Positions 33,148 to 35,746 of a stretch of DNA of 64,000 nt are shown here, in pieces. The stretch is from Actinomycetota bacterium. GTDB lineage: Bacteria; Actinomycetota; UBA4738; CALAEC01. The notes under the pieces are model-generated. The model saw only the letters and a list, made by a program, of their open reading frames with translations, ran no database searches and was not told the origin of the DNA. Where the stretch lies: positions 1,640 through 65,639 of the forward strand of contig JBOGWB010000086.1 of the NCBI GenBank assembly GCA_050693035.1, in the 5' to 3' direction. Position 1 is the stretch's first letter. Every line of letters begins with the position of its first letter. Both the position numbers and the translations under genes were made by a program.

Positions 33148-34332
33148 ATGCCGGGCTTCGTCTCCCATCTCTCATGCCCGCGTTGCGGCGAGCGGCACGA
33201 CGCGGGAGTGCCCCACAACGTGTGTACCTGTGGATCCCCGCTCCTCGTCGAGTACGACCTCGAGCGGGTTGGCCGCGCAGTGCGCAAGGACCTGCTGGAG
33301 ATGCGCGAGCCGACCATGTGGCGGTACCGCGAGCTGTTGCCGGTCTCCGAGGAGGGCGACATCGTCAGCCTGGGGGAGGGGTACACGCCGATCTTCCGGG
33401 TGGCTCGGTTGGGGAACGCCGTTGGACTCCCGGACCTGTGGGTGAAGGACGACGGGTTCAACCCGACGGGGACGTTCAAGGCCCGCGGCGCGGCGTGCGG
33501 CATCTCGATGGCCCGGGCGCTGGGGACCCGGGAGGTGGCCCTGCCCACCGCCGGTAACGCGGGGGCGGCCTGGGCATGTTACGGGGCCGCCGCAGGGCTC
33601 GGTGTGCACGTCGCCATGCCCGCGGACGCGCCCCACGCAACCCAGGTGGAGAGCCGCCTGTACGGCGCCGAGGTGACCCTGGTCGACGGTTTGATCTCCG
33701 ATGCCGCCCGCATCGTGGAGACCGGTGCTCGCGACCACGGATGGTTCGACGTCTCGACGCTCCGGGAGCCCTACCGGATCGAGGGGAAGAAGACGCTCGG
33801 TCTGGAGATCGCCGAGCAGCTCCAGTGGGAACCACCCGACGCCATCATCTTCCCCACGGGTGGGGGAGTGGGGATCATCGGGATCTGGCGAGCCCTGAGG
33901 CAGCTCCGCGAGCTCGGGTGGATCGATCGGGTCAGTCGTCTCGTGGTCACGCAATCGGACGGATGCGCACCCATCGTGAAGGCATTCGACGAGGGAAAGG
34001 ACGCGTCGGACCTCTGGGAGCGAGCGGAGACCATCGCCGCCGGGCTCAGGGTGCCCAAGCCACTCGGCGACTTCCTCGTCCTCCGGGCGGTTCGGGAAAC
34101 CGGCGGCACCGCCGTTGCCGTGAACGACGAGGCGATCATCGAAGCGATGGCGCTCCTGGCGCGCGACGCGGGGATCCTCGCCGCCCCGGAGGGAGCGGCC
34201 ACCCTCGCTGCGGCGATCCGGTTGCGAGAGCGAGGGGATCTCGGGCCGGGCGACCGCGTGGTCCTGATCAACACGGGGACCGGCCTCCTCTATCCCGAGG
34301 CGATGGAGCGGGCGGCCGCCATCAGGCGCTGA
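33148..34332 (+). CDS. thrC: Threonine synthase
   Basis: ATG 33148 within track ORF 32944-34332. N-terminal zinc-ribbon-like CPRCGERH...CTCGSPL, the PLP-lysine motif FNPTGTFKARGA, then PTAGNAGAAWACYGA and EPYRIEGKKT. Confidence 0.85.
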   Translation: MPGFVSHLSCPRCGERHDAGVPHNVCTCGSPLLVEYDLERVGRAVRKDLLEMREPTMWRYRELLPVSEEGDIVSLGEGYTPIFRVARLGNAVGLPDLWVKDDGFNPTGTFKARGAACGISMARALGTREVALPTAGNAGAAWACYGAAAGLGVHVAMPADAPHATQVESRLYGAEVTLVDGLISDAARIVETGARDHGWFDVSTLREPYRIEGKKTLGLEIAEQLQWEPPDAIIFPTGGGVGIIGIWRALRQLRELGWIDRVSRLVVTQSDGCAPIVKAFDEGKDASDLWERAETIAAGLRVPKPLGDFLVLRAVRETGGTAVAVNDEAIIEAMALLARDAGILAAPEGAATLAAAIRLRERGDLGPGDRVVLINTGTGLLYPEAMERAAAIRR

Positions 34333-34678
34333 GAGGAACCGGCGGGGAAGGGGCCAGGGCATCCCGGATCGGCTCGAGCCGTTCGGGCCGGACGCGGTAG
34401 TAGACCCACCGACCGCGGCGCTCCCGGTCGAGGAGCCCGGCCTCGTGGAGGACTCTCAGGTGATGGCTGACCGTGGGCTGAGAGAGGCCCACCGGGTCCA
34501 CCAGGGTGCACACGCAGGCCTCGCCGCCGGGTCCCGCGGCGACCAGGCTGAGGAGGCGAAGGCGGGCCGGGTCGGCCAGCACCTTCATGGCCCCGGCCAG
34601 CCGTTCGGCCTCCTCCGCCCCCAGGGGCTCCCGGAGGACCGGGCAGCAGCCCTCGATCTCGGCGATCTTCCTTCTCAC
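34322..34678 (-). CDS. ArsR/SmtB-family metal-sensing transcriptional repressor
   Basis: 118-aa ORF (GTG start). Features: LADPARLRLLSLV, CVCTLVDPVGLSQPTVSHHLRVLHEAGLL (alpha3 Cys-x-Cys plus recognition helix), and an N-terminal Cys pair (EGCCPV). It overlaps the 3' end of thrC by 11 nt (convergent). Confidence 0.85.
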   Translation of the reverse strand: MRRKIAEIEGCCPVLREPLGAEEAERLAGAMKVLADPARLRLLSLVAAGPGGEACVCTLVDPVGLSQPTVSHHLRVLHEAGLLDRERRGRWVYYRVRPERLEPIRDALAPSPPVPLSA

Positions 34679-34689
34679 GTGCTTATATT

Positions 34690-34738
34690 GACAGTCATCG
34701 ATGTTTCATGCAAGCATGATATCGACGGTCATCGATGT
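34690..34738. promoter_or_regulatory. Putative ArsR operator: two direct 15-nt repeats, each containing the palindrome CATCGATG, flanking the inverted repeat TCATGCaaGCATGA
   Basis: GACAGTCATCGATGT (34690-34704) and GACGGTCATCGATGT (34724-34738) are 14/15 identical. TCATGC-AA-GCATGA lies at 34706-34719, and TTGACA at 34688-34693. The whole 74-nt arsR-to-micro-ORF intergenic region is AT-rich relative to the genome. Confidence 0.5.
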
Positions 34739-34752
34739 GAGGAGGTGAGCGG

Positions 34753-34827
34753 ATGATCGGTACCCTGAAGCTGGATTCGGGCGATCCTTGTTGCCCTCCC
34801 GACTGCTGCCCGCCGGGCTGCTGCTAG
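34753..34827 (+). CDS. 24-codon Cys-rich micro-ORF (MIGTLKLDSGDPCCPPDCCPPGCC), candidate mini-metallothionein-like peptide
   Basis: It is not in the ORF track because it is under 60 aa. ATG 34753 is preceded by GAGGAGG (34739-34745), and TAG is at 34825-34827. It has 6 Cys as three CC pairs and about 74% GC at third positions (17/23, hand count). It is divergent from the ArsR gene across the operator. Confidence 0.4.
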   Translation: MIGTLKLDSGDPCCPPDCCPPGCC

Positions 34828-34849
34828 TCCGGGCGGTCCTCGGGGTTCC

Positions 34850-35746
34850 CTAGTGGAGGACGAGGGCGCGTACGGCAGGGAGGCCGGACGCGGCCTGCCC
34901 CCACGTCCGGCCCTCGTCCTCCGACAGGAACACCTCGCCGGCCTCCGTGCCGAATGCCACCGAGGTCCCGGAAGCGGCCAGGCAGTGCGTGTCGATGTTC
35001 CCAGGGAACCACTCCGGGAGGCCGCCGGCGCACCGCTCGAACGGTCCGTCGCTCTGCAGTGGACGCCGATAGAGCGCCGCGCTGCCGCCGCGCGGGCCGG
35101 TCGAGGCGCTCACCAGAATCGTGTCTCCGGCGATCGCCACCGCTCGCGAGTACGAGGCGTGGAGGCCCTCGTCGTGGAACGACCAGGAGTCGCCGCCGTC
35201 GTCGCTGCGAGCCAGCCCCCAGGCCGTGGAGGCGAGCACGAGGCCGGGCAGATCAGGATGGGCCAGGACCTGGTGCACGTCGGCGTCGATGTCGATGGTC
35301 GGTTCCCAGGAATCGCCGCCATCCGGTGAGCGCACGATCCCACCGACGTGGACGTTCACGTAGATGGTCCCGTGGCTCGCGGACATCGACCGCGTGTCCG
35401 GCGGCCCACCCCATGGGGTGTACCACTTCTCCCGCCCCTCGACCTCGTCGAAGGAGGCGACCGGCCCGACGGTCCCGCCGCTCACCCGGAACAGGCGGGC
35501 TTCACCGGTCCCCACGTACGGGCCGTTTCCATGCGCGAGGAGGCACCTGGCGCGACTCGGGATCTCTGTCACGCCTTCCCAGGAGCCTCCCACCAACCCT
35601 CGAAACACGCTCGTCTCGTCGAGGATCGCCCACAGGTGGATGCCTTCGGCGGCAAGGGCGGTGCACGACTCACCCCTCAGGTGTCCGGTGCCGCCCTCCC
35701 CCACGACCTCAATCCCGGAGGCCGTGCCCGCCACGATGATGGCCAC
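34850..35746 (-). CDS. BNR/Asp-box-containing beta-propeller protein (Ycf48/sialidase-like fold)
   Basis: 298-aa ORF with Asp-box-like motifs SPDGGDSW, SDDGGDSW and SEDEGRTW, and repeated Gly/Ala-rich beta-strand segments. No signal peptide. Confidence 0.65.
   Translation of the reverse strand: MAIIVAGTASGIEVVGEGGTGHLRGESCTALAAEGIHLWAILDETSVFRGLVGGSWEGVTEIPSRARCLLAHGNGPYVGTGEARLFRVSGGTVGPVASFDEVEGREKWYTPWGGPPDTRSMSASHGTIYVNVHVGGIVRSPDGGDSWEPTIDIDADVHQVLAHPDLPGLVLASTAWGLARSDDGGDSWSFHDEGLHASYSRAVAIAGDTILVSASTGPRGGSAALYRRPLQSDGPFERCAGGLPEWFPGNIDTHCLAASGTSVAFGTEAGEVFLSEDEGRTWGQAASGLPAVRALVLH

Follow-up and report, generated by a model that had tools for sequence, protein, structure and literature searches.

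The locus studied here raises a question: what does a repressor of the ArsR/SmtB family control when the frame divergent from it has only 24 codons? The locus lies in a stretch of 64,000 nucleotides (nt) from the genome of an Actinomycetota bacterium (assembly GCA_050693035.1, contig JBOGWB010000086.1), which is called the window below. An earlier note on this DNA had pointed out the arsR gene and, on the other side of a short intergenic region, a cysteine-rich micro-ORF (open reading frame, ORF), and had proposed that the latter encodes a very small metallothionein or metallochaperone. The comparisons presented in this work suggest that the micro-ORF is a genuine gene, that it belongs to a family of micro-ORFs conserved beside arsR homologues in Actinomycetota, and that its product probably binds As(III) or a similar thiophilic species.

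A family of micro-ORFs divergent from arsR

The micro-ORF peptide has two parts, a variable stretch of 10 N-terminal residues and the conserved core DPCC-PPD-CC-PPG-CC, which forms the extreme C-terminus. Its six Cys residues, found in the place and in the three CC pairs that the earlier note had given, amount to 25% of the 24 amino acids (aa); in the modal form of the family the proportion is 6 of 16 (38%), and aromatic residues are absent. Frames of this kind are rare in the genome: at least five Cys within the final 14 residues occur in 4 of 42,646 stop-to-stop frames, and of these four only the micro-ORF has three CC pairs.

A global scan for the pattern P-C-C-P-x3-C-P-x2-C-C followed by TRR, over 185,579 species genomes, returned 82 loci. 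Family members account for 42 of them, from 42 species-level genomes, all metagenome-assembled genomes of Actinomycetota. Their ORFs have 15–24 codons and a true stop right after the last CC pair, with MNDPCCPPDCCPPGCC (16 aa) as the modal form and (D/E)PCCPxxxCPxxCC-stop as the family motif. In about 37 of the 42 members, an arsR homologue with 56–75% identity is located 90–230 bp away on the opposite strand. All 43 family members with a start codon carry GGAGGT, or a sequence close to it, ahead of that codon. The remaining matches to the pattern end in TGG or contain in-frame stops, are not accompanied by arsR, and were considered false positives.

The family was also found closer to the window. 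A six-frame search of 61 related genomes revealed short frames with the same motif in nine genomes of the same order, all nine accompanied by a divergent arsR and by GGAGGT as ribosome-binding site. A profile search of this order detected the gene in 49 of its 294 genomes (among high-quality genomes, 23 of 109) and in 14 of 78 genera. Most of these carriers fall in one family (f5), and in the family of the window the gene is confined to its own genus. Conservation beside arsR homologues in other genomes, on which the earlier proposal had been made to depend, is borne out by the 42 species-level genomes and by these 49 of the order. Three genomes of the order (G044, G240 and G261) carry two copies of the micro-ORF motif on separate contigs. 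In other genera of the family of the window, the orthologue of the convergent gene that follows the micro-ORF is present without the module beside it. This distribution would be expected if the genus had acquired the two-gene module, although other genera may instead have lost it.

Annotated sequences contain almost no trace of the family. The exact 24-aa peptide and a 20-aa relative are both missing from a collection of 15 billion proteins, and the single relative found among 1.84 billion representative proteins is MVKPSRALAASDPCCPPDCCPPDAVPPGCC, a micro-ORF product of 30 aa. Plasmid sequences, searched with the peptide by tblastn, contained no match. Among the families of Pfam and NCBIfam, including the metallothionein models and the ArsD model NF033727, none was matched by the peptide.

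Evidence for a coding sequence

In most family members, the Cys and Pro codons were fixed by the search pattern. At the free position before PCC, D or E is found in 41 of the 42 members (GAT in 18, GAC in 16 and GAG in 7); position 7, also free, is D, E or G, and position 12 is G or D. In the set retrieved with the pattern, all 14 third-codon positions are variable, against 5 of the first and 6 of the second positions.

A genome of the same genus (G002) contains a colinear region of 5.8 kb with 78% nucleotide identity, which holds arsR (88% identity in amino acids), both operator sites and the micro-ORF MLRANPGLAAGDPCCPPDCCPPDAVPPGCC. The 30-aa product mentioned above is encoded on Logan contig L207, in the gene order PALP-arsR-microORF-BNR that is also seen in the window. 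Among these three syntenic orthologues, the N-terminal ten residues drift by in-frame indels, and a 15-nt in-frame insert is present in both G002 and L207. The core DPCCPPDCCPP presents six synonymous and no non-synonymous changes between the window and G002, and its peptide sequence in L207 is identical to that of the window. The evidence drawn from these syntenic orthologues is free of pattern bias. Two loci found by searching metagenomes with ArsR as the anchor, L124 and L145, carry the variants MRNLDPCCPSDCCPEGPCC and MSDGCCPEDCCPAGCC, which are outside the reach of the pattern. On the basis of the substitution pattern, the in-frame indels and the synteny, we regard the micro-ORF as a translated gene with purifying selection on its C-terminal core.

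Putative operator and divergent promoters

Two direct repeats with an inner palindrome are present between arsR and the micro-ORF (Table 1), as had been reported, but they are longer than the 15 nt first given: each has 20 nt, with identity at 18 of 20 positions, and contains CATCGATG (34696–34703 and 34730–34737). Operator site 1, the first repeat, overlaps two putative promoter boxes, TTGACA (-35, for the micro-ORF) and CAATAT (-10-like, for arsR). Operator site 2 spans the region where the -10 box and the start of the micro-ORF transcript would be located. In the 2.15-Mb assembly, the operator motif occurs at this locus only. Apart from arsR itself, the micro-ORF is thus the one cargo that can be identified for this ArsR.

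About 40 family loci have site 1 in this position. Over about 40 loci, the two palindromic sites are kept together with the arrangement ATATTGACA-N15-TGTCAAC(A/G)T, and in nearly all of them the TTGACA box is kept as ATATTGAC(A/G). Starting at the start codon of arsR (on the reverse strand), the family consensus reads 6–7 nt, ATATTGAC(A/G)-N4-(G)TCGATA-N5-TGTCAAC(G/A)TATCGAC-N4-ATCGATAC; after ATCGATAC come a variable stretch, GGAGGTG, 5–9 nt and the start codon of the micro-ORF. The inverted repeat TCATGC-AA-GCATGA, to which attention had previously been drawn, is present between the two sites, but it is confined to the window. At its position, the relatives carry TGTCAAC(G/A)T, the reverse complement of TTGACA, as a possible -35 box for arsR. 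From the conserved layout we infer two 8-4-8 ArsR sites and two overlapping divergent promoters, with TTGACA in site 1 as the probable -35 box on the micro-ORF side and its TGTCAA twin as the one on the arsR side. The pattern 'CAATAT, 6–7 nt, start codon MK(L)IQ..CC' was seen again in many family loci, and because only 6–7 nt separate CAATAT from the start of arsR, the arsR mRNA is probably leaderless.

At the other end of the unit, a hairpin just past the stop is significant in 32 of the 42 family loci (median z -4.0). The genes downstream of the micro-ORF vary by locus and can be glmM-glmS, arsC or, often, convergent genes. Because of these differences the micro-ORF unit appears to be monocistronic. 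The folding of the ORF region itself is not more stable than that of shuffled sequences, and a search of Rfam at permissive thresholds gave only microRNA-like hairpin matches at chance level and no family. A long GC-rich hairpin at 34853–34924, within the 3' end of the convergent BNR/F510_1955-like gene, likewise had only microRNA-type Rfam matches at chance level.

The ArsR repressor and its clade

The repressor belongs to the ArsR/SmtB family, as indicated by its matches to Pfam HTH_5 (PF01022; 56.3 bits, cut-off 22) and NCBIfam NF033788 (97.3 bits, cut-off 55). To the Rv2640c-family equivalog NF041413 it is related without being a member (85.6 bits, under the cut-off of 155). Among proteins of solved structure, its closest homologue is CgArsR (6J0E; E 1.6e-25, 92.8 bits), which responds to As(III), and the other solved homologues, including SmtB, NmtR and CadC, reach at most 51.9 bits.

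The N-terminal CC pair and the CVC of helix 3, both noticed at the outset, correspond to C11-C12 and C55-V-C57. In the HMMER alignment to 6J0E, the 'gCCpvl' of the query stands over 'eCCtla', which places C11-C12 on Cys15-Cys16. The latter two belong to the type 3 As(III) site of CgArsR, Cys15-Cys16-Cys55' (PMC11868830). The column of Cys55 of CgArsR is occupied by Gly in the repressor of the window, whose own Cys55 and Cys57 are found 4 and 6 residues later. The partner ArsRs of the family keep C11/C12 in 35 of 37 cases and C55/C57 in 37 of 37. The two Cys of the N-terminal arm and the two of helix 3 are the candidate sensor cysteines. In the ArsR tree, 37 of the 38 repressors linked to a micro-ORF are included in one group (3 label changes versus 26.9 for shuffled labels), and this clustering indicates that peptide and repressor were inherited together.

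The gene contents around the relatives point to arsenic. Genes similar to the LMWP-type ArsC are present in about half of the 43 micro-ORF loci (a cluster of 23 members) in several arrangements, and an ArsM above the NCBIfam cut-off follows arsR in seven of these loci. Among the annotated neighbour clusters of the micro-ORF loci, no metal-efflux ATPase or cation diffusion facilitator (CDF) family was found. In L097 and L107, a fusion of an ArsR helix-turn-helix (HTH) domain with an LMWP ArsC-like domain (235–242 aa) lies 96–176 nt past the micro-ORF, on the same strand.

The ArsR-anchored scan of metagenome contigs gave 80 close relatives of the repressor, with an operator of the same style and a probably leaderless arsR, and about 68 usable loci. 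Apart from the few loci with a Cys micro-ORF, the slot divergent from arsR is occupied by ArsI/CadI (187 bits, cut-off 116), by ArsD (129 bits, cut-off 90), and also by ArsM-like methyltransferases, a 438-aa flavoprotein, ArsC fusions and a MIP channel. At least two Cys are found within the last 25 residues in 26 of 47 cargo proteins. Many of the arsenic proteins encoded beside sister ArsRs, namely ArsI/CadI, the 438-aa flavoprotein, ArsD and ArsM (loci including L159, L142, L115, L173 and L180), have Cys-pair tails just before the stop, such as ...CNCC, ...GGSCCS, ...GCCEPSSGPPGAKAKTSCC and ...QCCGGTGQPGEPAVSHSAQCC. Different micro-ORFs with Cys pairs were seen divergent from related ArsRs at L189 (MNECCDPLLCDPTVPGACEPGCC, 23 aa) and L151 (MLGDSPTFYGEDDNPACCGSGEQAAGAPPAAASPCC, 36 aa), and their unlike sequences hint at several independent peptide types.

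Proposed function

On these grounds we propose that ArsR represses both promoters, that this repression is lifted by As(III) or a similar thiophile, and that the peptide then captures the toxic species with its vicinal thiolates. It would serve as a sink or buffer, and perhaps also as a donor to other proteins. We give this reading a probability of roughly 0.6. In the proposed mechanism, an ArsR dimer would occupy the two 20-bp palindromes and cover the overlapping back-to-back promoters, one for a leaderless arsR mRNA and the other for a short mRNA with the micro-ORF. As(III), or a similar thiophilic species, would be bound by Cys11/Cys12 and Cys55/Cys57 of the repressor, which would then leave the DNA and allow the transcription of both genes. 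The DPCC-x3-(C)C-x3-CC core of the 24-residue peptide would supply five or six thiolates in vicinal pairs. Each peptide could then sequester or buffer As(III) in up to two S3 sites, and may hand it to other proteins. Such a peptide would resemble an inducible metallothionein in miniature, or the cysteine motif of ArsD detached from its protein. Repression by ArsR, the identity of the inducer, translation and binding by the peptide are all inferred here from sequence.

The earlier proposal of a micro-metallothionein for thiophilic metals under ArsR control is upheld in part: the gene is conserved, its ribosome-binding site is strong and its conserved operator has two sites that overlap the putative promoter, but the context favours arsenic over Cd, Zn and Cu. 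The preference for arsenic comes from CgArsR as the nearest solved relative, from the sister ArsRs associated with arsI, arsM, arsD or arsC, and from the frequent occurrence of arsC or arsM in the micro-ORF loci.

Several observations weigh against the proposed function or against parts of it. A simple consensus scan of the window locus called no complete sigma-70 promoter and no terminator, and for this reason the promoters are drawn from family conservation only. The stem-loop that follows the micro-ORF in the window (-41.5 kcal/mol, z -0.33) is no better than those of shuffled sequences. The invariance of Cys and Pro in the family is partly by construction, because the pattern fixes their codons. 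The G+C content at third codon positions (GC3) of the micro-ORF, described earlier as typical, was measured as 0.75, which is somewhat low in comparison with three of the four neighbouring genes (0.85–0.88; the fourth has 0.74). In the metagenome survey, only 3–4 of the roughly 68 usable ArsR loci have a Cys micro-ORF. No ars gene adjoins the module in the window, and the Acr3 pump was not found in the assembly, which is 89% complete. The sole ArsC-like LMWP gene of the assembly (contig C31, 14703–17347) is at the end of a pstB-phoU-response-regulator operon (pst-pho). This position suggests that arsenate reduction is tied to the phosphate-uptake regulon and not to ArsR. The regulator is related, moreover, to the Rv2640c/CadI family, whose name refers to cadmium induction, and its N-terminal Cys pair and CVC could bind Cd or Pb equally well, as in CadC. 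No clear ArsM was found in the assembly, where the only match is a weak one to a methyltransferase, with 30% identity. The member of the window stands out in its family by the 10-residue N-terminal extension and by an ArsR regulon with no other ars gene.

Alternative explanations

With the same architecture, the ligand might instead be the cation of a soft metal, namely Cd(II), Pb(II), Zn(II) or Cu(I), and the peptide a mini-metallothionein under the control of a CadC- or CmtR-like sensor. The four sensor cysteines might form an S4 site for Cd or Pb; CadC, SmtB and NmtR are among the solved homologues of the repressor, the nearest NCBIfam equivalog is the partner of cadI, there are no ars genes near the module, and no Acr3 was found in its assembly. 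We nevertheless consider this explanation unlikely, since CgArsR is by far the closest solved relative, the cargo of the clade is of the arsenic type (ArsM, ArsD, ArsC, and ArsI with an ECCY pair), and the micro-ORF is often accompanied by arsC or arsM, with no metal-efflux ATPase or CDF among the annotated neighbour clusters. Somewhat less probable still is a peptide with a mainly regulatory or hand-off role, which would either compete with ArsR for As(III), thereby fixing the threshold of induction and restoring repression, or deliver As(III) to ArsM, ArsC or an exporter in the way ArsD supplies ArsA. The CC-x4-C spacing of C13, C14 and C19 equals that of Cys12-Cys13-Cys18 in ArsD (PMC4562236; ArsD homologue of L115), the peptide and the sensor arm of ArsR have the 'CCP' motif in common, and the two genes are co-inherited. 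A role of this kind is opposed by the lack of a constant partner gene across the loci and by the isolation of the module in this genome.

Explanations unrelated to metal(loid) binding seem much harder to sustain. One of them is a peptide that is redox-active or modified, for instance a thiol buffer based on vicinal disulfides or a precursor resembling those of ribosomally synthesized and post-translationally modified peptides (RiPPs). It would agree with the strained disulfides that vicinal Cys pairs can form and with a size as small as that of known RiPP cores. We find it very improbable, given that no modifying enzyme, protease or exporter is conserved alongside, that there is no leader-core organization because the N-terminal part consists of 2–10 variable residues, and that regulation by an arsenic-clade ArsR speaks for a connection with metalloids. 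Hardly any more credit, and if anything a little less, is due to a cis-acting leader in which ribosomes stalled at Cys codons would sense cysteine or Cys-tRNA and control a downstream gene. Consecutive Cys codons and a stem-loop after the ORF in most loci are what such a leader would have, and attenuators of this type are established in mycobacteria (10.1101/834739). Those mycobacterial frames are leaderless and precede cysteine-metabolism operons. The micro-ORF has a strong ribosome-binding site, a convergent neighbour 22 nt past its stop in the window and no constant downstream gene (glmM, arsC or convergent genes), and on these three points the leader model fails; conservation moreover extends past the Cys codons to Pro, Asp and Gly and to the precise place of the C-terminal stop. 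The least probable reading of all is an untranslated ORF, conserved by a constraint on DNA or RNA such as a terminator or an extension of the operator. The ORF is indeed very short, and spurious frames are plentiful in GC-rich genomes, but the substitutions are of the coding type, with variable third positions, six synonymous to zero non-synonymous changes against G002 and indels that stay in frame. Start codon, spacing of the ribosome-binding site and stop are conserved in 43 loci, and the negative results with Rfam and with the folding of the ORF region also speak against it.

Comparison with known systems

The plan of the locus is that of the cyanobacterial pairs SmtB-SmtA and BxmR-BmtA, in which the repressor gene is divergent from the gene of a small Cys-rich peptide, with the operator-promoter between them. 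The analogy with the SmtB-SmtA divergon that had been drawn before fits the architecture found here, in which binding of the repressor is presumed. SmtA has about 56 aa and a defined Zn4Cys9His2 fold. The peptides of the present family, on the other hand, have 15–24 (up to 30) aa and no His, and are linked to ArsRs of an arsenic-type clade.

A second likeness is with ArsD of the R773 type, whose essential As(III) site is Cys12-Cys13-Cys18 and which also has the C-terminal vicinal pairs Cys112/113 and Cys119/120 (PMC4562236). Vicinal Cys pairs are common to both, and the invariant C13, C14, C19, C23 and C24 of the peptide include CC-x4-C. In addition, one sister ArsR has as its divergent cargo an ArsD homologue that ends in ...GCCEPSSGPPGAKAKTSCC. 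Unlike ArsD, which has a thioredoxin fold of 120 aa and docks on ArsA, the peptide is without such a domain and has no arsA nearby. The chemistry of the peptide core would resemble that of the vicinal-Cys sites for trivalent arsenicals in ArsD, CgArsR and ArsI, in part with identical CC-x4-C spacing.

For the repressor, CgArsR of Corynebacterium glutamicum is the best solved homologue, with an N-terminal CC pair that aligns, but the two differ in the third ligand position, and the CVC is as in helix 3 of R773 ArsR, CadC and SmtB. The divergons Rv2640c-cadI and ArsR-arsI/cadI share with the present locus the ArsR clade, the operator style (ATCGA..TGTCAATAT), the leaderless arsR and the cargo slot. 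Their cargo is a VOC-family enzyme of 130–170 aa, whereas here it is a peptide of 24 aa.

Of the smallest metallothioneins known to be gene-encoded, the copper metallothioneins of Neurospora and Agaricus have about 25 aa, and mycobacterial MymT has 53 aa. As a class these small metallothioneins, of which MymT is mentioned in PMC11672702, are like the peptide in being Cys-rich and without aromatics, and they act in inducible cytosolic sequestration. The high Cys content, the absence of aromatics and the small size used as compositional criteria for metallothioneins are all found in the peptide. There is no sequence kinship, however, the CC pairs are flanked by Pro instead of being arranged as CxC or CxxC, and the modal form of 16 aa is shorter.

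Polycysteine short ORFs of mycobacteria are leaderless attenuators that act in cis before cysteine-metabolism operons (10.1101/834739). Like them, the micro-ORF is an unannotated actinobacterial frame with consecutive Cys codons; it differs in having a ribosome-binding site, its own operator, a hairpin and no constant gene downstream.

Layout of the locus

The positions of the features discussed above are given in Table 1. The GAGGAGG that had been noted 7 nt before the ATG fits the Shine-Dalgarno sequence listed there, and the coordinates agree with the distance previously reported between the stop of the micro-ORF and the convergent gene.

Table 1. Coordinates of the features of the arsR/micro-ORF locus, numbered from the first nucleotide of the window.
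Feature	Position	Strand	Description
arsR	34322–34678	minus	ArsR/SmtB-family repressor, 118 aa, GTG start
arsR/micro-ORF intergenic region	34679–34752		74 nt
CAATAT, putative -10 box of arsR	34685–34690	minus	6 nt upstream of GTG
Operator site 1 (direct repeat), ATATTGACAGTCATCGATGT	34685–34704		ATATTGAC-AGTC-ATCGATGT, imperfect 8-4-8 palindrome
TTGACA, putative -35 box of the micro-ORF	34688–34693	plus	perfect hexamer
Inverted repeat TCATGC-AA-GCATGA	34706–34719		between the operator sites
Operator site 2 (direct repeat), ATATCGACGGTCATCGATGT	34719–34738		ATATCGAC-GGTC-ATCGATGT, 8-4-8 palindrome
Shine-Dalgarno sequence, GAGGAGGTG	34739–34747	plus	5 nt upstream of ATG
Micro-ORF	34753–34827	plus	24 codons and TAG, product MIGTLKLDSGDPCCPPDCCPPGCC
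GC-rich stem-loop, GGTCCTCG...CGAGGGC	34835–34867	plus	after the micro-ORF stop; weak possible terminator, shared with the convergent gene
Convergent gene downstream of the micro-ORF	end at 34850		gap of 22 nt

On the other side of the module, convergent with arsR, is a gene for a PALP-family (threonine-synthase-like) enzyme (33157–34332, plus strand), which has an N-terminal four-Cys motif similar to a zinc ribbon, CPRCGERHDAGVPHNVCTCGSP. Inverted repeats of 10 nt connect 34640–34652, in the N-terminal codons of arsR, with 34803–34824, in the micro-ORF. Antisense pairing of arsR codons 11–13 with the micro-ORF was considered and rejected, since both mRNAs have CUGCUGCCCG (the CCP codons) in the sense direction. 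The two genes use identical Cys-Cys-Pro codons on opposite strands, and their mRNAs therefore share this sequence and are not complementary in it.

Significance

Full-text literature searches found no description of an ArsR-linked Cys micro-ORF of this kind. As judged from its sequence, the peptide belongs to no described family, while the plan of a sequestering peptide controlled by ArsR/SmtB is itself already known. With even odds, in our estimation, free-standing micropeptides of 15–30 aa with vicinal Cys and under ArsR control would constitute a distinct determinant of arsenic resistance that has as yet no name. No smaller metal(loid)-binding peptides encoded by genes would then be known. 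Missed by gene callers and inherited with their own repressor in a portable two-gene module, they would take the slot of arsI, arsM or arsD.

The family exposes a blind spot of annotation, since gene calling has picked up only one relative, of 30 aa. The small size of the peptide permits its synthesis, which makes its metal(loid) chemistry directly testable, and it could find use as a minimal tag in arsenic biosensing or bioremediation. If As(III) is bound, this peptide of 16–24 residues would be a new and very simple part of arsenic resistance, an inducible 'arsenic sponge' or mini-chaperone, and its existence would explain some ArsR genes that seem to regulate nothing.

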